Shown here: one piece after another, positions 2,998-25,300 of the stretch
Layout of the letters: every line of letters begins with the position of its first letter
How positions within the stretch are numbered: the stretch's first letter is position 1
IMG/VR virus record: IMGVR_UViG_3300043107_000144
Origin: an uncultured virus (IMG/VR IMGVR_UViG_3300043107_000144)
Lineage: Duplodnaviria; Heunggongvirae; Uroviricota; Caudoviricetes
DNA length: 25,727 nucleotides
Reading direction: 5' to 3' (one strand)
The notes under the pieces: generated by a model
Seen by the model: only the letters and a program-made list of their open reading frames with translations
Told to the model about the DNA's origin: nothing
Database searches by the model: none
Translations under genes and position numbers: made by a program

Positions 2998-3420
2998 ATG
3001 GAAGAATTACTTATTACTGTATTTGTGGTTATTGCAGTATTGTTCGCTGCCTCTTCGGTTGTGCTTTGGCTGCGGATAGGGAAACTTAAAACCGCCCTTC
3101 GCGAGAGCAGGGACTATTCATTAGACCAAATGACGCTGTTAAGCAAGAAGGACAGAGAAATTGAAACGGAAAAAGAGTTTGTCCGCAAGTTGGATGATGC
3201 ACTTTCGCAGAGTAAAGCAGCAGTAAACGAGCTAAAGACAGACAATGATGAGCCATGCGGATATTCCGTCAAGGACATTAAAGAAACCTGCTATTACGGT
3301 GTTTCTGCAAGCTACATGAGTGGGAAGAAGGCGTTAATCAAGGTGTTCTCAACTGATGATATTGACTACAATTATCGGTTGGCGCATGAACTTAAAGAAC
3401 AGTTGGAGGAGGAGTTATGA
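2998..3420 (+). CDS. Hypothetical protein, N-terminal TM plus coiled coil; paralog of 122-514
   Basis: Hydrophobic N-terminus; C-terminus LIKVFSTDDIDYNYRLAHELKEQLEE. Confidence 0.75.
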   Translation: MEELLITVFVVIAVLFAASSVVLWLRIGKLKTALRESRDYSLDQMTLLSKKDREIETEKEFVRKLDDALSQSKAAVNELKTDNDEPCGYSVKDIKETCYYGVSASYMSGKKALIKVFSTDDIDYNYRLAHELKEQLEEEL

Positions 3421-3755
3421 ACCGACTAATTTACTTCGGAACAAGCGGATGCTACACGCATGATACCACTGTAATCAAAGGCGACTTTAGCCAAAAGGAG
3501 AGCGTGCGTATCGCAAGAACCATCGGAACCGACCATGTTATTGGCTTTGTGTGGGACAGATGGATTTATGACCATGCACCAGTCCTGCTTCACGTGGATA
3601 ATTACAGCGTCTATGCCGTACCACTTAGCAGGGATGTTAGCGGAGGAGATTGCATTACAGCTTTGATTACAGACTTCGATACTCGGCTGACAGCAGACGA
3701 CTTCAAGGCAGAGATTGAGAAAAGTGAGTTTTTAACGAAACAGTTTGATATATGA
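3417..3755 (+). CDS. Hypothetical phage protein
   Basis: 112-aa coupled ORF. Confidence 0.75.
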   Translation: MNRLIYFGTSGCYTHDTTVIKGDFSQKESVRIARTIGTDHVIGFVWDRWIYDHAPVLLHVDNYSVYAVPLSRDVSGGDCITALITDFDTRLTADDFKAEIEKSEFLTKQFDI

Positions 3756-4129
3756 GAACAATAAAATTCAGAGGTAAGGGTTGTAATACCAACAAATGTG
3801 TTTATGGTAGCTTGCTGATAGCTTACGACCCATTCGACAAGCCTTACTACACAATCGCAGTCAAGGGCAGTATATTTGTTCGCGTTATTCCTGATACCGT
3901 AGGGCAGTTCACCGGACTGCTCGACAGCAACGGCAAGGAAATTTATGAAGGAGATACGCTGCAATTAAGAAATAAAGGCAAGGATGACGGTTATTTGGAA
4001 GGTGCTGTTGCTTACGATGAAACGCTTTGTTACTTCGTTTGGAAGTTCATGGGCACTGGTATAAGACCGTTGGCAGAGTGGGTTTTAGATAGAGAATATA
4101 TTGTAACGGTTAAGGAGGAAGAGGAGTGA
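3752..4129 (+). CDS. YopX-family protein
   Basis: MRTIKFRGK...TVGQFTGLLDSNGKEIYEGD signature. Confidence 0.9.
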   Translation: MRTIKFRGKGCNTNKCVYGSLLIAYDPFDKPYYTIAVKGSIFVRVIPDTVGQFTGLLDSNGKEIYEGDTLQLRNKGKDDGYLEGAVAYDETLCYFVWKFMGTGIRPLAEWVLDREYIVTVKEEEE

Positions 4130-5781: not shown

Positions 5782-5844
5782 AAAGCGGATAGTCAGAGCT
5801 GGCCGCCTGATGACAAGCGTAATGTTTGGTGGCGCTTCCGCTTT
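5782..5844 (+). ncRNA. Candidate structured leader RNA (three-way junction)
   Basis: AAAGCGGA/TCCGCTTT closing stem enclosing TCAG/CTGA and AGCG/CGCT stems; followed by a T-rich tract. Confidence 0.4.
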
Positions 5845-5867
5845 TTCTTTTTCCCAACAACCTTTTA

Positions 5868-7295
5868 ATGCCAATGAATATGCAGAGACAAAAAATTCTT
5901 CCGGGAATGAAATTCGGAATGGCTACAATCATCAAAGAGGTAGAGCCTAATATTGCACCATGCGGCACAAAAAAACGCAGATTCCTTTGCAAATGTGATT
6001 GTGGCAACGAGTACATAACATTGAGAGCCACACTCAGGAAGGGTGGCAACCCAAATTGCGGCTGCTCAATGCGCCCAGAAATAGGACATGGATGTAGAAA
6101 ATACACCGACGAGCAAAAAAACAGCTGGTTATATTCTACGTGGTCGGGAATGAGGCAGCGTTGCTATTATAAAAAATCACATTCATACCCAAATTATGGA
6201 GGAAGAGGAATCCGGGTGTGTGAAGATTGGAGAGAAAACTATATAAGTTTTTATAATTGGGCCATCAGTAATGGCGCAGCAGAAGACTTGTCGTTAGACA
6301 GAATCGACACCAATGGAGATTATTGTCCTGAGAATTGTAGGTGGGTCTCTTATAGTGAACAGGCGAGAAATAAACGATGTAACCGTTATATTGAATACGA
6401 CGGAAAGAATCAACTCTTGATTGATTGGGCAAAAGAGGTGGGGATACCGTATGACAATATTCGAGCTCGTTTGGATGAATATGGATGGTCTATCGGTGAG
6501 GCATTAGGATTTAAAAAACATGACCAGCAAAAACGCGATTACTCTTCACGCAGAAAAACGGTATTGCAGTACTCTATTAAAGGAGAGCTGATAAAGGAAT
6601 GGCCTTCAATTATGGATATTGAGACCGAGCTTGGTTATAGCGGTTCTTCAATAAGGTCTGTATGTGTAGGCGAATCGTTTACGTCTCATGGATTTAAATG
6701 GGAATTTAAAGACAAAACTCCACCGCCAGATGGTATAATTAGAAGGCGGGCACACGTAAAACAATATACAACAGATGGAGTATTTTTGGCTGAGTATTCA
6801 TCCGTTGCAGAAGCGTCAAAATCTACAAACATAAATGGGAATGGTATCCGATTGTGCTGCACAAAAGAAAATAAAAAGTCGTGTGGCGGATTTTTATGGA
6901 AATATGCAAATGACACACGCCAGATTGAACCAATTAATTATATTGAGCCACAGACATCCAAAATCATAACATATTGCGGGGAATCAAAGACTATATCGGA
7001 GTGGGCGAAGCAGGTCAATATCAGAGCGCAGGTAATTATCTCCCGACTGAACAGAGGTAGTTCGGTCGGGCAAGCGCTGGGGATTGATTTTAAGTCAAGA
7101 AAAGGCTCATCGTATTCTTGTCCGATAATGCAGCTTGACGCTAATAAAAAACTAATACGCGAGTGGAAAAGTCTGCACTATATAAGGAAAGAAGGGGTTC
7201 GCGATAAAAAGCAAGTAAGACGTTCAATCGACACGGGGCTTCCTGATTCACACGGAGAGTATTGGGTTTTAAAAGACAATTATTATGCTGACTGA
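5868..7295 (+). CDS. HNH-type homing endonuclease with NUMOD1-like DNA-binding repeats
   Basis: CKCDCG..NCGC, YGGRGIRVCEDW, LSLDRIDTNGDYCPENCRW; repeated VxQY...G..I.EW.S units. Start likely ATG 5868, 5874 or 5880. Confidence 0.85.
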   Translation: MPMNMQRQKILPGMKFGMATIIKEVEPNIAPCGTKKRRFLCKCDCGNEYITLRATLRKGGNPNCGCSMRPEIGHGCRKYTDEQKNSWLYSTWSGMRQRCYYKKSHSYPNYGGRGIRVCEDWRENYISFYNWAISNGAAEDLSLDRIDTNGDYCPENCRWVSYSEQARNKRCNRYIEYDGKNQLLIDWAKEVGIPYDNIRARLDEYGWSIGEALGFKKHDQQKRDYSSRRKTVLQYSIKGELIKEWPSIMDIETELGYSGSSIRSVCVGESFTSHGFKWEFKDKTPPPDGIIRRRAHVKQYTTDGVFLAEYSSVAEASKSTNINGNGIRLCCTKENKKSCGGFLWKYANDTRQIEPINYIEPQTSKIITYCGESKTISEWAKQVNIRAQVIISRLNRGSSVGQALGIDFKSRKGSSYSCPIMQLDANKKLIREWKSLHYIRKEGVRDKKQVRRSIDTGLPDSHGEYWVLKDNYYAD

Positions 7296-9402: not shown

Positions 9403-10177
9403 ATGATAGATTTAAGACACGGCGATTGCCTTGAAATATTGCCTACAATAGAAGATAAAAGTGTAGACCTGATACTTACCGACCTGCCTTACGAAGTCCT
9501 TAACAAGGGCAACGAACACGCAGCATGGGATAAAATGTTGCCCCTTGATAAACTGTGGACGGAGTTCAAGCGTGTAATTAAATCGGGGGGGGGCAATTAT
9601 TCTGTTCTCACAGGGAATGTTTACCTGTAAGCTGATGATGAGTAATCCTACGTGGTGGCGATACAACCTTATATGGGATAAGGTGGCTACTACGGGATTC
9701 TTAAACGCTAATCGTATGCCCTTGCGCCGACACGAAGATATTTGTGTGTTCTACGACAGGTTGCCGACATATAATCCGCAAATGGTTAAATGCGCTCCAC
9801 ATCAACGCAATCATGGGCGAGGAAGCATGAAGGGCAACCAAACGAATCGCTGCTATGGTGAGTTTATTGACTTACCAACAGTAATCTCCGATGAGAAGTT
9901 CCCAACAAGTATCATCTCCATTCCAAAGGAACATAAGAACGGTAGTTTCTACCATCCTACGCAAAAAGCCGTACCGCTATTGGAATACCTTATAAAAACC
10001 TATTCCAACGAAGGAGAAACTATCCTTGACGCTACAATGGGTAGTGGCAGCACGATGGTCGCTTGCGTGAATACGCTAAGACGCGGTATTGGGATAGAGC
10101 TGAATGACAAATACTTTGCCATTGCAGAGAAGAGAGTAAGAGAAGCAAAGGCTGAAATATCAAGTAGATTATTTTAG
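9403..10177 (+). pseudogene. Beta-class N6A/N4C DNA methyltransferase, frameshifted at a G9 tract
   Basis: ORF1 has ILTDLPY; ORF2 has HPTQK and LDATMGSGST. G9 at 9585-9593; G8 fuses them (KSGGAIILFSQGMFT). Confidence 0.85.
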
Positions 10178-13590: not shown

Positions 13591-14513
13591 ATGAATATCG
13601 GACTTGTAGACGTAGACGGACACAACTTCCCAAACCTTGCGCTAATGAAGATTTCTGCATGGCACAAGGCGCACGGAGATAGCGTTGAATGGGCTAATCC
13701 TCTGTTCGGCAATTACGACAGAGTATATATGAGTAAGGTCTTTACATTTACCCCCCCCTATTATATAACTTTGATTGCGAAGTTATAAAGGGCGGTACAG
13801 GTTTTGGAATGTACAATGAGCTGCCTTACGAGATAGACCATACTCAGCCTGACTACTCAATCTACAACATAGCCGATACTTCATACGGATTTACGACACG
13901 TGGTTGCGTCAACAAATGCTCGTTCTGTGTAGTGCCAAAGAAAGAGGGTTCTATAAGGCCATATATGACGATTGATGAGATTGCCGCAGGGAACAAGAAG
14001 GTAGTGCTGATGGATAACAACATTCTTGCTCATCCTCACGGCATAGAACAATTAAGAATAGCCGCAGAGAGAGGCTACCGAATTGACTGCAATCAAGGAT
14101 TGGATGCACGTCTTGTAACGGATGAGATAGCCGAAATACTTGCAAGGTGCAAATGGATTGATTACATTCGTACAGCTTGCGACAGCCATGCGCAGATACC
14201 ATATATTGAGCGTATGCACGAGCTTCTTATAAAGCACGGACACAATGGCAGAATATTTGCTTACTGCCTTATTCGCGACTTTGAGGAGACGACCGATAGA
14301 ATCAATTACCTGCGTCAGTATAAATGGCTCTCGCCACACTGTCAGCCCTATCGCGACTTCAATAATCCGAAGCAGATTATACCGCAATGGCAGAAGGACA
14401 TGGCACATTGGGTGGATAGGAAATGGGCTTATCGTGCTTGTGAGTTTAAGGACTTTGAGCCACGTAAGGGGTTCAAGTGTAAGTCCTATTTTGAAGATAA
14501 TAGGTTAAGATAG
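13591..14513 (+). pseudogene. Radical SAM protein, frameshifted at a C8 tract
   Basis: N-terminal MNIGLVDVDGHNFPNLALMK; CVNKCSFC in ORF2. C8 at 13751-13758; C9 fuses the frames (FTFTPPLLYNFDCEVIKGGTG). Confidence 0.85.
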
Positions 14514-20403: not shown

Positions 20404-21000
20404 TTAGCCGTTGATATGCTGATTCAAGTCGTTCTCAATTCTCTCATAGACCGTTTTCACGTTTGTTCTCTCCCTTGCAGGATTCGGCTTGTCGTAGACT
20501 TCTTTCTCCACCACCTCGCATACCCAGTCAATCCACTCGTCCGATGTGAACTGCGGAAGTTTCCTTCCACGGAAGCGGAAACAGTCGAGCTTGATGTTGC
20601 GGCTCGTGTGAAGGTTAGTGATAAGGTTTCGAATCTTCGCCTGCGTAGCTTCACGGTTGGCGATGTGATTCTCTGTCCTTACACGGGTAATGAATTGAAG
20701 AACCTTCTCCTGCGACAGCTCGAAAAAAGTCTTTGTGATGGTCTGAATCTTTATCTGCGTTTCAGGTCTAAGACCTTCCACAATATCAGACAACATCTCA
20801 TTCTGCGCTTTCGTTTCTTTAAGCAGTTCTGAAACCATTGAGTTATCTCTGTCGATTACTCCCGTGATGGTGGACTTAAACCACTTAAAGCAAGCTACCC
20901 AAAGAAGAGCCGTAAGGATAAGGAAGAATCCTGCACTAATTGCCAAATAGCCATAGTCTGATATGCCCTTGGCGACATCTAATGCCTGACTGACTTCCAT
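20404..21000 (-). CDS. Membrane-anchored protein, holin/antiholin candidate
   Basis: Single N-terminal TM (YLAISAGFFLILTALLWVACF) plus soluble domain, upstream of endolysin. Confidence 0.55.
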   Translation of the reverse strand: MEVSQALDVAKGISDYGYLAISAGFFLILTALLWVACFKWFKSTITGVIDRDNSMVSELLKETKAQNEMLSDIVEGLRPETQIKIQTITKTFFELSQEKVLQFITRVRTENHIANREATQAKIRNLITNLHTSRNIKLDCFRFRGRKLPQFTSDEWIDWVCEVVEKEVYDKPNPARERTNVKTVYERIENDLNQHING

Positions 21001-21419
21001 TACACACCGATTTTAGTCAGTTCTGTCTTTACCCAAGCGATGAACTCGTCATGCTCTGCGACCTCTGCGTCTGTCGCGTCCTCTCTGAACTTGCGTGCCA
21101 TTGAAGCCGTGAAAGAAGCTACCGCCATTGCATCCGAAAGGTGATACGCTGCCATCTCCGCTGCGTTGATAAGACTGTCGCGCGTAGCAGGTTTCTCCGT
21201 GCGGATTGGATAGGCGATGGTCGTTTCAACTTCCTTAAACTCAAAGCTGCCATCCTCTGTCGGTACCTGCTCTTGTCTAACGGACTTCTCATGGGCGATA
21301 AAGTACGTCATGTGAGAGCCTTCGTCAAGAGCGATACACTTACCGTCTTTCCACAAGGTCTTACCCTTGTTGACGTCCTCCTCCTGCGTCGAGGGGACTT
21401 CTGTCTTGTTTACAATCAT
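21000..21419 (-). CDS. Hypothetical protein downstream of RT (tail chaperone or DGR accessory candidate)
   Basis: 139 aa; AGGAGGT upstream; TAATG coupling to next gene. Confidence 0.75.
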   Translation of the reverse strand: MIVNKTEVPSTQEEDVNKGKTLWKDGKCIALDEGSHMTYFIAHEKSVRQEQVPTEDGSFEFKEVETTIAYPIRTEKPATRDSLINAAEMAAYHLSDAMAVASFTASMARKFREDATDAEVAEHDEFIAWVKTELTKIGV

Positions 21420-21461: not shown

Positions 21462-22763
21462 TTACAAAAATTCTGTAAGTTTTGTACTATCTTTGAAAAT
21501 ATATCCGCTGTGTGATACGATTGTAACATCTTCCAAGGGTAGGATTTGTTCTTTCGGGTAGGATTGTTCGCATTCGTGAAGGAATGCTGCAAGGGAGGAG
21601 TATGAGCCGTGGAACTCGCGTGCTATGTTTATTCCGTCCTGCGGAATACCTATCAGACATTTGAGCCAGTTGGGATTGTTGCTGCTGTCGTATTTTATTT
21701 CGTAATCGTGAATAAAGAAGGTAACTCCATTATCGGCAAGTTCCTTGACGGATATTTGCTGTGCGTCAAGTTTTCTCTCTATCTTTATAGTATTAGTTAG
21801 CTCGCGAAGCTTCATTTTCTTTTCAATGGTTAAAAGCAGGGAGTAACAGTCGGCTTCCTTTAGCAGTCCGAAGTAGCTGCTGTAATTTCTATCGTTTGAC
21901 TTCTTCGCACTGCGGATGGTTGAAAGCCTTACCTTTGTTGTTCCCTTGTTATGGTGATTAATGTGGTTACTTCTTCTTACGATATATCCGCATATATCTA
22001 CGGGCATATCAATAGGTTGAAGGATTATCTCGCTTCTCTTTGCCCTTATCCTAAGTTCGTACCACCAATGGAACATGATTCGCCACTTGACTTTATTTGC
22101 CTGCTCCTTGTCTTTTAGGAAACAGATAACATTGTCAGCATAGCGAACCATCATGCACTCGGACTTTATCTTCTTGTCAAAGTCAAGTAATATAACATGG
22201 TGGATGACAGGTGAGAGCGGTGTACCTACGGGGAAGATTGAGCCAACAAAGGAAAGTGAAACGATGAAGTCATTTTCTTCTCCGTAGAAACCGAGCTTTT
22301 TCAGCTGCTTCCTGACTACGCTTTCCCTGATATGCTCATAGCATTTGCGCATATCAATACAGAGAACGTATTTCAAGTCCCTGCGGTCATATACTGCGTG
22401 CTTTACGCGCTTTAATACGGAGTTGTTTCTTTTCCCGGCTGTGATACCTCTTCCTTTAAGACAGTTCAGTCCTACGTGGACTTCCCTTCTTTTGTAGGCA
22501 GGCATGATTAAGGAAATTGCTACATATTGAAGGACAAGTGTATAAAAAGAAGGTTGAAATGTTGTGCGGTGCTTACCGTTTTTGTTCGTTACTTCTCCCC
22601 TTTTGTAGCTTATTTTCTCTAAGTATGCCTTTGTTTTTATATCCTCAAAGATGTTCCTTGCATACTCTTTATCTCTTAAAGCCAAGAGGACATCGAATCG
22701 GCTTTTCCTGCCTTTCGATGCCTTCTTGATAGCTTTTTCGATGAGTTGTATGTTAACTTCCAT
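21462..22763 (-). CDS. DGR reverse transcriptase with C-terminal extension
   Basis: KASKGRK, KNGKHR, LCIDMRKCY, FPVGTPLSP, VRYADN, DICGY, SYFGLL; adjacent to TR. ATG 22763 preferred over TTG 22790. Confidence 0.92.
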   Translation of the reverse strand: MEVNIQLIEKAIKKASKGRKSRFDVLLALRDKEYARNIFEDIKTKAYLEKISYKRGEVTNKNGKHRTTFQPSFYTLVLQYVAISLIMPAYKRREVHVGLNCLKGRGITAGKRNNSVLKRVKHAVYDRRDLKYVLCIDMRKCYEHIRESVVRKQLKKLGFYGEENDFIVSLSFVGSIFPVGTPLSPVIHHVILLDFDKKIKSECMMVRYADNVICFLKDKEQANKVKWRIMFHWWYELRIRAKRSEIILQPIDMPVDICGYIVRRSNHINHHNKGTTKVRLSTIRSAKKSNDRNYSSYFGLLKEADCYSLLLTIEKKMKLRELTNTIKIERKLDAQQISVKELADNGVTFFIHDYEIKYDSSNNPNWLKCLIGIPQDGINIAREFHGSYSSLAAFLHECEQSYPKEQILPLEDVTIVSHSGYIFKDSTKLTEFL

Positions 22764-22768
22764 GAGAA

Positions 22769-22900
22769 TCAAGTTCTGAGCGTTTCGCAAGAGTTACTTG
22801 CACACCCACTCTGAATTTAGGTGCTTGTCTTATATTTTACGTCTTTCGCGTAAGTCCTTCATCTTTCCTGCTTTGAGGTAGCTTTAAACGCTCAAAACTT
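22769..22900 (-). ncRNA. Structured spacer of DGR RNA closed by a 15-bp fold-back stem
   Basis: 22886-22900 and 22771-22785 are inverted repeats (14/15; the mismatch is a U-G pair in the minus RNA); inner hairpins GCAAG/CTTGC and TTACG/CGTAA. Confidence 0.65.
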
Positions 22901-23005
22901 TAGCAAACCCTCCATTATTGACGTTCGTATTAGAAGCTCCATTATTGCAATTCGCACTACGACGAGCGCAATTAGTGTCATTCGCATTACCGCCAAAACG
23001 CAAAG
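22892..23005 (-). repeat. DGR template repeat (TR)
   Basis: 114-bp gapless match to 23215-23328; 10 AAY codons; 13 of 15 mismatches are at TR adenines. Confidence 0.95.
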
Positions 23006-23153
23006 AGGCTTTGATAAAGAACTCTTATCGCAGCTGTACTCCACCGATTCGGAGGTTGCATCCCAATGTGCAACTTGTCGGTTTTGAACAGCGTTTGCAA
23101 AGATAGTATAAATTTTCAACTCTCCAAACTTTTTTCCCGAGAATTAAAAGGCG

Positions 23154-23203: not shown

Positions 23204-25300
23204 CTAAAGCTCTATCAGAACTTGAGCAAACCCTCCATAAGAGACGTACGTATTAGAAGCTCCAACATCGCCAGTCGCACTACGACGAGCGCAATAAGTG
23301 TCACGCGCACTACCGCCAAAACGCAAAGCAACTCTGATAGCATTAGAGGTGGTAGCACCATACCATTCGTAATAGTCGAGCGTATAACCGTAGAAACACA
23401 TACCCGTACTTACAGAACCGCCTGACAGCTTCTTCCAAGGCGAGAAAGCATACCTTTTAGCTGCCCAGTTATATGACTGCGTAACACTGTCACCCAAGTA
23501 GATATAGCTGTCTTCAAGTGAGAACTTCTCTGTCGTGGTGATAGTCGTTTCGCGTCCCCACTTCGTTTGGTCGGGTTGAACATACATTTTCAGCGGTGTT
23601 CCCGTAAGTCCAGTACCGCTCTTCGTCTTTCGCGCGATAACCTCCGCGCCACCACCTGTATACTTCCAAATATCTCCCGAATGTGAACAGCCATCCAGTA
23701 CGCCAAGGCGAAGAATCATCTCCACGTCAAAGGTAGTTGCCGTACCCGAAGCGTTGTTTGCTGAAATCTGTCCCGTCATCTTCTTGTAAAGGCGCATATT
23801 CAGTCCTCCGCCCTTAGCCGAAGAGATGGACTTCCACCAATATGTATTACCGTAGCACTCAAACTCTGTTCCTTCCGCTACTCCCGTTTCCACTGCGTAA
23901 GAGCTGACAATGATAGCTTCGTTTACTCTTTCCTTCGGAGCATATTGGTTAGCTAAGTTGGACGCATTACCACACGACGTTGTTCCCGTATATTTGATAC
24001 CCGACGGGTCTGTCCCCCATCCTGCATAAACCCAAGTAGAGGAAGATGTTTCCTTGTATCTCATACCACCGTTTGCTTTCCATGTATCTTCACTAGAGCA
24101 GGCGTCATTGGCGGAGATACCCGAAGAGAAGGTATTCGCATCATGGATATAGTTTGTACCATAAACAGCTTCATGCACTCCGTTAAATGCGTCATACCAA
24201 AAGAAACCGCCCTCGGCAAAAGGAACGGAAGCGGTTGTGTCGGAGTTGTTGGCTCTAGACCAGTTCATCAGGTTAACTTGCTGACAGTCGTTTGTTCTCG
24301 GATAGAAACCGTTGTTATAGAACCACTGACAGCAAGAACCAATACCCACTTTTCCAATAGAGTTAGCATCGCCAATCTTATAGTCGAAGAAGAAACTGCG
24401 CGTCTTGCCGTTTATTGTGCCCACTCCCGAAGGAGAGAAAGCGGTCGTTTCAACCTTCCACGGAGTAAGGTCGATACCGTCCCAATCCGTTCCCGAAAGA
24501 AAGGCACCCTTCCAACGCTTTCCTGACTTTCCGATTGCGTCGCCAAGGTAATAAAAAGGCTTTACGTTGGCTACCATGATAGAGTAGTCCGTGCTTGTCG
24601 TTTCCCAAGGGCGCAGGATTCTGACCTCTGCTCCCGAAGCATTGTAGAGCTTCTGACTTACACCATACTCTGTGTAGAAGGATTCCGCGTCAAACTCCCC
24701 TGCGTCGCAGTATTTGTTGCTTGCCGAAGCGTCAAGATAAAGAGCGACGTCACACTCGGCACGCTGTTCTTCCGTAATACCAACCGCAGGAGCAAACGTA
24801 CCGTCCTTATATCTTAATGCGTTGTTCTGCGTGAGGACTTTCGGCTTGTTTCTTTCCCCTGCCGTATTGTCCGTGTGGTCTATCAGTACGGGGTAGAACA
24901 AGTCCTGAATCTCTGTCACGTCGCCATGCGTTTCACTCGCTGTTGCCGATAGGTTATCATCTACCCATCCTGCTACGTAATACCGCGGTTGCAGAGAGCT
25001 TAGCTCATCGAGTTTGGTAATCTCGCTCTGCAGGCTGTCGATGGTTGTCTGTACGCTTGCTGCTACCTTGTTTGCATTATCCGCGGCTGTGTTTGCTGCC
25101 GTTGCTGCCGCCGTTGCTTTCGAGCCATCCACCATTATCTTCCAATAAGACGTGTTGGTTACGGCATTTCCCTTGTTGTTATCCACGACTGATACATAGG
25201 AGGAATTACCGCTATATACCACATCGTTTCTTTCGTAACTTGTAGTAGAGGAGTAGTCACCCTTGAAGACTACCCCTACCTTACCTAAATCTGTTGCCAT
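23204..25300 (-). CDS. DGR target: tail fibre/receptor-binding protein with probable C-terminal CLec-like fold
   Basis: 698 aa; N-terminal KGDYSSTTSYERNDVV...YW module, Ala-rich coil, C-terminal VR. Confidence 0.85.
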   Translation of the reverse strand: MATDLGKVGVVFKGDYSSTTSYERNDVVYSGNSSYVSVVDNNKGNAVTNTSYWKIMVDGSKATAAATAANTAADNANKVAASVQTTIDSLQSEITKLDELSSLQPRYYVAGWVDDNLSATASETHGDVTEIQDLFYPVLIDHTDNTAGERNKPKVLTQNNALRYKDGTFAPAVGITEEQRAECDVALYLDASASNKYCDAGEFDAESFYTEYGVSQKLYNASGAEVRILRPWETTSTDYSIMVANVKPFYYLGDAIGKSGKRWKGAFLSGTDWDGIDLTPWKVETTAFSPSGVGTINGKTRSFFFDYKIGDANSIGKVGIGSCCQWFYNNGFYPRTNDCQQVNLMNWSRANNSDTTASVPFAEGGFFWYDAFNGVHEAVYGTNYIHDANTFSSGISANDACSSEDTWKANGGMRYKETSSSTWVYAGWGTDPSGIKYTGTTSCGNASNLANQYAPKERVNEAIIVSSYAVETGVAEGTEFECYGNTYWWKSISSAKGGGLNMRLYKKMTGQISANNASGTATTFDVEMILRLGVLDGCSHSGDIWKYTGGGAEVIARKTKSGTGLTGTPLKMYVQPDQTKWGRETTITTTEKFSLEDSYIYLGDSVTQSYNWAAKRYAFSPWKKLSGGSVSTGMCFYGYTLDYYEWYGATTSNAIRVALRFGGSARDTYCARRSATGDVGASNTYVSYGGFAQVLIEL
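23215..23328 (-). repeat. DGR variable repeat (VR)
   Basis: Encodes LRFGGSARDTYCARRSATGDVGASNTYVSYGGFAQVL versus TR LRFGGNANDTNCARRSANCNNGASNTNVNNGGFAKVL. Confidence 0.95.

Follow-up and report, generated by a model that had tools for sequence, protein, structure and literature searches.

The question raised by this locus is whether a reverse transcriptase (RT) whose catalytic box reads YADN in place of YxDD can still work. All three catalytic aspartates are held to be essential for RT catalysis, and the Asp-to-Asn change found here is a standard way of killing an RT. The enzyme is encoded by a diversity-generating retroelement (DGR) on a 25,727-nt stretch of DNA from an uncultured virus of the Caudoviricetes (IMG/VR IMGVR_UViG_3300043107_000144), and this whole stretch is called the window below. 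An initial annotation proposed either a distinct RT clade with altered chemistry or a recently inactivated enzyme. The best explanation overall, which we consider probable, is that the window encodes a DGR RT of a clade marked by GxxxSP in motif B, that residue 220 in this clade is free to be Asp or Asn, and that the YADN enzyme would be catalytically competent. Judged by its genomic footprint, YADN appears to be a functional variant that is frequent, has arisen repeatedly, and is under selection.

The window holds a complete phage DGR in the order target tail-fibre gene with variable repeat (VR), template repeat (TR), and RT. Its main elements are as follows.

23204 to 25300, minus strand: DGR target gene, 698 aa, with a tail-fibre-like N-terminus (from translation and PHROG tail-fibre matches at the N-terminus)
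23215 to 23339, minus strand: VR, at the 3' end of the target gene (14 of 19 mismatches at TR adenines)
22892 to 23016, minus strand: TR (from repeat comparison)
21462 to 22790, minus strand: DGR RT open reading frame (ORF), 442 aa when translated from TTG 22790
22353 to 22355, minus strand: motif A catalytic aspartate D146 (CIDMRKCY; IDxRKCY), invariant in 70 of 70 sequences
22197 to 22232, minus strand: motif B PVGTPLSPVIHH, residues P187 to H198, with GxxxSP instead of the DGR-typical GxxxSQxxAN
22131 to 22142, minus strand: motif C YADN (Y217, A218, D219, N220)

Residues are numbered on the 442-aa ORF counted from TTG 22790, although ATG 22762 (433 aa) is likely the better start. The RT is full length and matches Pfam RVT_1 with 42 bits. 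Its motifs had been read correctly in the initial annotation: TAT GCT GAC AAT stands exactly at 22142-22131, and PVGTPLSPVIHH, preceded by F185 and ending at residue 198, has the GxxxSP form. Two features by which DGR RTs are recognized differ in the window, which reads PVGTPLSP where domain 4 has (I/L/V)GxxxSQ and YADN where the catalytic box has YxDD.

Position 220 was compared among 69 homologs (339-502 aa, 35-56% identical to the window RT) from a word-indexed search. Of the 70 aligned homologs, 44 have N at this position, 25 have D, and one has A. The nearest homolog (P0003, 56-57% identical) has YADN, as do 43 further homologs; the initial annotation had allowed that close homologs might all carry YADD, which is not the case. 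In a tree of 106 rows with 15 canonical DGR RTs as outgroup, the window RT lies beside P0003, at least 15 D/N changes occurred among 89 ingroup rows, and one clade of 18 rows is entirely N. Because the earliest-branching ingroup rows under this outgroup rooting are D, D at 220 is probably ancestral. A tree of 152 rows, to which RTs from 197 fetched loci were added after thinning to <90% identity, gave at least 17 D/N changes, with 71 D and 65 N among 136 ingroup rows. Within the GxxxSP clade, either D or N is evolutionarily admissible where YxDD has its second aspartate. Conservation of YADN among homologs, which had been raised as a question, is partial: N is the majority state and is fixed in the 18-row clade, and D is kept by the 25. 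Because position 220 is polymorphic, YxDD does not define the clade. As a separate observation on the neighboring residue 221, 17 of the 25 YADD members read YADDN and YADN members mostly read YADNV; Asn is present at 220 or 221 in 61 of 70 sequences.

Activity can be read from the repeats that a DGR mutagenizes. TR and VR of the window form a 125-nt direct repeat with 85% identity, and the stop codon of the 698-aa target gene lies 9 nt past the VR end. The adenine mutagenesis noted at the outset was borne out by 14 of 19 TR/VR differences falling on TR adenines; three of the non-adenine mismatches are at the 5' edge. For the family, scans gave 444 related stretches (218 from a viral scan and 226 from a metagenome scan, the two sets partly overlapping), from which loci were taken up to at most 80 of the 218 viral and 80 of the 226 metagenome relatives. 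An RT ORF was present in 191 of the 197 fetched loci, 41 of them YADN and 150 YADD. Loci with at least 1 kb upstream were eligible for comparison, and a TR/VR pair was called adenine-biased with at least five adenine mismatches and at least 70% of mismatches at A. Such pairs were found in 147 of 161 eligible loci family-wide: 29 of 34 with YADN and 118 of 127 with YADD, or, counted as lineages (loci thinned at <90% identity), 19 of 22 and 29 of 33.

The mutation spectrum is also shared. In unique TR/VR pairs of YADN loci, 313 of 339 mismatches are at TR adenines (92%), with A>C 0.39, A>G 0.14, and A>T 0.47; for YADD loci the values are 1473 of 1641 (90%), 0.39, 0.12, and 0.48. The A>C/G/T counts of the two groups are indistinguishable (chi-square p 0.73). 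Nine pairs of YADN RTs of equal length and at least 80% nucleotide identity, several of them duplicates from near-identical loci, had Nei-Gojobori ratios of nonsynonymous to synonymous substitution (dN/dS) of 0.02-0.13, indicating purifying selection. VR turnover with identical TRs was seen in three YADN lineages: 14 of 15 differing sites are at TR adenines between L013 and L014 (loci 95% identical), 15 of 17 in the L006/L009 group, and 14 of 14 between L118 and L119. We infer that the YADN protein itself is probably the polymerase behind these footprints.

Residues that vary together with position 220 were sought by a mutual-information scan of the 70 sequences, which picked position 254 in RAKRx[E/D], three residues past the near-invariant K251. 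Two positions of the window are concerned.

22029 to 22031, minus strand: E254 in motif D (RAKRxE), the acidic residue co-varying with N220
21948 to 21950, minus strand: residue 281 in the loop H280-x-K282-G283 (H-[D/N]-K-G), a second D/N toggle

Among the 136 non-redundant ingroup rows, residue 254 is acidic in 44 rows with N at 220 and other in 21; in rows with D at 220, it is acidic in three and other, mostly T, in 68. On a tree built without columns 220 and 254, 14 independent D/N contrasts (phylogenetically independent, on well-supported branches, means over 200 pairings) gave 8.0 in which acidity at 254 changed the same way, 0.3 opposite, and 5.7 with no difference. The sign test has a nominal median p of 0.008, which is uncorrected and concerns a column chosen on overlapping data. 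Acidity at 254 ranked first among 927 column-by-class tests and position 281 second; HDKG is found in 35 of 65 YADN rows versus 20 of 71 YADD rows, and the window has N281. Of 24 YADN loci that carry one of the acids, at 254 or at 281, 23 have a TR/VR pair, as do six of 10 with neither (loci not independent). In a MAFFT alignment, column 254 is the K of motif D hxhNPxK[T/V]xIh in seven of the 15 canonical outgroup RTs. DSSP of the structure model places residue 254 in a turn just before strand 256-259 and past helix 228-245. In the RRM-like palm topology, the motif D strand pairs with the motif A strand, and the strand start is at the catalytic end. By this topology, residue 254 is predicted to adjoin the motif A strand that ends in D146. 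The covariation of N220 with an acidic 254 may reflect compensation and is the most interesting new lead of this analysis.

In the mechanism that we propose, the YADN enzyme would be catalytically competent, its two metal-bridging carboxylates would come from D146 in motif A and from D219, the first Asp of motif C, and the third position would tolerate N220. An acidic residue would often join N220 from position 254, a motif D loop position at the palm sheet's catalytic end, as E254 may do in the window. TR RNA would be copied to adenine-mutagenized cDNA, which would then replace the VR, as in other DGRs.

Several explanations compete with a competent YADN enzyme. One is that a sequencing or assembly error produced the AAT codon and the RT is really YADD. 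There is no independent read over 22131-22133, and L001, which is identical to the window, is probably of the window's own source. Three RNA-library contig sets share 5-8% of words with the window and contain small contigs over parts of the RT and TR; their coverage ends at 22117 and resumes at 22199, leaving the YADN codons uncovered. An error of this kind is nonetheless extremely unlikely, with next to no weight in our view, because the nearest homolog and 43 others, from independent samples, also have N at 220, and, of the 191 fetched loci that have an RT ORF, 41 read YADN (L001, which is the window's own contig, is one of the 41). A more substantial alternative is that YADN RTs are dead or nearly so, and that the footprints date from YADD ancestors or were left by a different RT in trans. 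Several points weigh on this side and against competence. In human immunodeficiency virus type 1 (HIV-1) RT, changes of this type are regarded as inactivating: D186N is used to disrupt metal binding at the polymerase site (PMC1976467), and D185N/D186N serves as a catalytic mutant (PMC10415136). Both YxDD aspartates were given as 100% conserved in 155 DGR RTs in a 2012 survey (Schillinger et al., PMC3521204). A TR/VR pair is missing from five of 34 YADN loci, and in two YADN loci (L003 and L007) the VRs are rearranged or lost. VR footprints span an indefinite time and may fit reduced as well as normal activity, and for the window itself an RT may act in trans. The window lineage also lacks independent evidence of VR turnover; L001 is identical, and the sole alternative VR is on one RNA-library contig, whose VR core has the same length but is diverged. 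This contig is unusable as evidence of turnover because its flanks match just 22-27 nt each and have unlike loose ends. Set against these points, N has been maintained over deep divergence, including the all-N clade; YADN RTs are under purifying selection; TR/VR pairs are kept in YADN lineages about as in YADD lineages (19/22 vs 29/33); and in three YADN lineages VRs differ almost only at TR adenines while TRs are identical. As to action in trans, the 25.7-kb window has one RT among 44 ORFs scanned, and a family-motif scan of the loci of about 8-9 kb showed no second family member, other RT types not being searched for. With selection, footprint, spectrum, and VR turnover combined, it is very unlikely that the clade's YADN enzyme is dead, and we regard this alternative as improbable; for the window lineage itself this evidence is indirect. 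The suggestion of recent inactivation is rejected, given N as majority state, the 18-member N subclade, the low dN/dS, and the VR turnover in three YADN lineages.

A further alternative is that YADN marks a changed chemistry and not a neutral variant, with a shifted metal preference or a two-carboxylate site in which an acid at 254, and perhaps at 281, supplies a third ligand or restores charge. The imbalance at 254 (44 of 65 N rows vs three of 71 D rows), the direction of the 14 contrasts (8.0 vs 0.3, nominal p about 0.008), the first and second rank of 254 and 281, the 23 of 24 YADN loci that combine one of these acids with a TR/VR pair (six of 10 without), and the modeled place of residue 254 just before the motif D strand 256-259 and next to the motif A strand all speak for it. 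However, the p-value is uncorrected for choosing the column on overlapping data, the loci in the 254/281 comparison are not independent, the acid is absent from 21 of 65 N rows, with a TR/VR pair still present in six of 10 such loci, and the mutation spectrum is unchanged between YADN and YADD. The altered chemistry proposed in the initial annotation thus finds no support in the mutation footprint (adenine share 92% vs 90%), and metal use and kinetics are not readable from sequence. We consider a changed chemistry possible but on balance doubtful. With the same reserve, it can be suggested tentatively that the third "catalytic" RT aspartate is dispensable in nature, that D146 and D219 would suffice, and that the carboxylate that tends to accompany a D220-to-N change at 254, a position taken by the conserved lysine in canonical group-II-like RTs, might mark a relocated or re-balanced site, possibly with another metal dependence.

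A clade that toggled between D and N at least 17 times, is under selection, and still mutagenizes its targets indicates that the third carboxylate is conditionally dispensable, and the covariation names a candidate compensating residue. No report of YADN or YxDN in DGR RTs was found in open-access full text or bioRxiv. YADN is new for DGRs and contradicts the generalization of 100% conserved YxDD aspartates in the survey cited above. The motif B part was already known, because GxxxSP is given in PMC11054128 and SP in PMC3521204. If the third aspartate is indeed dispensable in this way, this would be the first natural system in which YxDN RT activity can be read directly from genomes. Detection rules that also require YxDD would miss these loci a second time.

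The RT clade is known but barely described, and it occurs in Bacteroidales phages and prophages from gut and rumen. The 69 homologs have P[IV]GTPxSPxxHH, RYAD[N/D], and a C-terminal extension in common. Invariant positions in the 70-sequence alignment are D146, R148, Y151, P187, G189, P191, S193, H197, R216, A218, and D219, and motif B shows little or no departure from SP across the family. Of 1.84 billion representatives searched with a profile, 78 proteins reached E<=1e-30; next below, at about 100 bits, were RTs of about 340 aa with PIGNxxSQxxAN and YxDD that matched profile positions 4-320 alone. From this score drop and coverage, the window RT belongs to a sister group distinct from canonical DGR RTs, with a C-terminal domain of its own. 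The proposal of a distinct RT clade was therefore well founded, since the 69 homologs share motifs and the extension and their nearest relatives outside are canonical SQ/YxDD enzymes. The window RT is placed in the GxxxSP clade by full-length homology that includes the C-terminal extension and by PxGTPxSPxxHH, and among DGR RTs by its nearest solved structure (that of the Bordetella phage DGR RT, bRT) and its nearest outside sequences (SQ-type DGR RTs).

The initial annotation had also described loss of the DR motif. The segment concerned is short.

22536 to 22547, minus strand: FYTL (F82-Y-T-L85), opposite F-K-D-R of bRT (FxDR) in a profile alignment to 8ub7_A

In the family, the D of this motif is replaced by T almost throughout, and R is kept by most members, with L in the window and a minority. 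Loss of D is a clade-wide feature, and loss of R is not.

Asp-to-Asn change recurs outside the GxxxSP clade, because four SQ-type DGR-like RTs among the 150 best representatives (P0133, P0153, P0163, and P0214) combine GxxxSQ with YMDN (P0133, P0153, and P0163) or YCDN. A locus scan for P0133 found none. Motif C was readable in 52 of the 54 loci found for P0163 and was YxDD in all 52.

The closest described system is the DGR of the epsilon crAss-like phage crAssE-Sib, whose RT has GxxxSP and a normal YxDD (Babkin et al., Viruses 2024, PMC11054128). A blastn search of the RT-TR-VR region against the phage collection gave no match. With tblastn against 50,697 phage records, the crAssE-Sib RT (OR575929.1) was the sole full-length match, at 41.5% identity; the alignment spans 100% of the query and takes in the C-terminal domain. 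The crAssE-Sib DGR has the same layout as the window (target, VR, TR, RT), and a C-type lectin fold is reported for its target (PMC11054128). The cassette was missed by myDGR, for which its authors blame the GxxxSP motif (PMC11054128), and a follow-up paper repeats this point (PMC12386605). crAssE-Sib and the phage contigs of about 150 kb that group with it have YADD, whereas the window has YADN with E254, and the window phage is a different and smaller one with replication, lysis, and tail modules. YADN, the C-terminal domain, and the lack of Avd go unmentioned in the consulted parts of the crAssE-Sib account (PMC11054128).

The closest solved structure is the Bordetella phage BPP-1 DGR RT (8ub7_A), with a profile E of 4.7e-13 over positions 6-323. 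Foldseek of an AlphaFold2 model (mean predicted local distance difference test score, pLDDT, 90) against 8ub7 gave a template modeling score of 0.74 normalized to the target. In bRT, the catalytic residues are D138/D215/D216, I181 and Q187 contact the incoming base, and Avd is required, with the role of positioning the template-primer duplex (bioRxiv 10.1101/2023.10.23.563531). Both bRT and the window clade carry out adenine-specific TR-to-VR mutagenesis. The window RT has P194 for the Q and N220 for the third Asp, carries about 100 aa more as a C-terminal domain, and differs from bRT also in that no Avd was found. Since the window clade has P194 and adenine specificity is unchanged, the Q of the SQ motif is not needed for adenine mutagenesis. 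SP was already among the rare SQ variants in Schillinger et al. (2012) (PMC3521204).

The last Asp is replaced by Asn in more distant polymerases too. Mononegavirales L polymerases, a palm family that works with this change, have GDN as motif C; they are RNA-dependent RNA polymerases and offer an analogy only. The RTs of nematode Belpaoviridae (Cer7-13, Atlas virus) have a natural YVDN hallmark that is conserved within the lineage (PMC9094657, PMC554778), and whether Asn can replace Asp in them was left open in PMC554778. Belpaoviridae are eukaryotic long terminal repeat retroelements, an unrelated context, whereas the window clade has the TR/VR footprint as a built-in readout of activity.

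The C-terminal domain is specific to the clade.

21480 to 21773, minus strand: C-terminal alpha/beta domain, residues about 340-437 (canonical DGR RTs cover profile positions 4-320 only)

This domain of about 100 aa is modeled with a pLDDT of 87.5. It matched no Pfam family and gave no Foldseek match, and a weak OB-fold/SSB/PriB-like resemblance (Z <=5.1) is below the tool's meaningful level. It may be speculated that the domain is a nucleic-acid-binding substitute for the missing Avd. The accessory protein that DGRs encode next to the TR (Avd or HRDC type) is absent from this place in the window: the 199-nt VR-TR gap has no sense-strand ORF of at least 50 aa, and 64 distinct VR-TR gaps of the family (138-395 nt) have no Avd-sized ORF. 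A Pfam scan of 37 window ORFs found no Avd family member, and a divergent or distant accessory protein may be present.

Near the RT start is a 15-nt inverted repeat (93% complementary) in which 22771-22785, just upstream of the RT start, pairs with 22886-22900 at the TR 3' end, an arrangement reminiscent of the TR:spacer duplex that primes synthesis in the Bordetella DGR. In 85 unique loci, the longest helix between TR end and spacer has a mean of 8.7 nt versus 8.4 nt in shuffles. By this crude measure, the helix does not count as a family feature. The predicted RNA fold of the TR-spacer region was no better than shuffles (z -0.66).

Rearrangements at two YADN loci deserve mention. A single hybrid repeat is present in L003 (1949-2065), where L002 has a separate VR and TR (3224-3340 and 3735-3851); this looks like VR-TR recombination with deletion of the intervening stretch. 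L007 has no detected TR/VR pair, whereas its close relative L012 does, and the two loci are rearranged upstream of the RT. The RT ORFs of L003 and L007 are intact, and both are YADN.

Directly after the RT, a 139-aa ORF (21000-21419, minus strand) begins 45 nt past the RT stop. Of 48 other diverse loci, 14 have a homolog (39-54% identity) directly after the RT, at -14 to +32 nt. In six of the 14, the homolog is the N-terminal part of a 260-293-aa protein, and the extension is of the WxPG...LW type in four of these six. The ORF had no Pfam match and no PDB sequence match, and weak Atlas leads pointed toward tail assembly chaperone-like proteins. A DGR accessory protein is one possibility, and a merely syntenic tail gene is another. 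An Atlas structure likened this ORF to part of a 451-aa RT cluster; this lead was rejected, as the profile-profile comparison with the C-terminal domain gave a probability of 0.1.

The window is phage DNA, with PHROG matches that include a primase/helicase, RecT, a DNA methyltransferase, a Holliday junction resolvase, an endolysin, and tail-fibre proteins. The tRNA and Rfam scans of the window found none. Two genes each appear to be divided between adjacent plus-strand ORFs: a radical SAM gene (13591-13788 and 13809-14513, consecutive parts of phrog_9298) and a DNA methyltransferase gene (9403-9630 and 9617-10177, consecutive parts of phrog_67). Possible causes of the splits are a frameshift, a programmed event, and gene decay. 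Directly upstream of the primase/helicase gene, 5826-7295 (plus strand) encodes a 489-aa HNH endonuclease with a NUMOD1 domain, which is likely a homing endonuclease.

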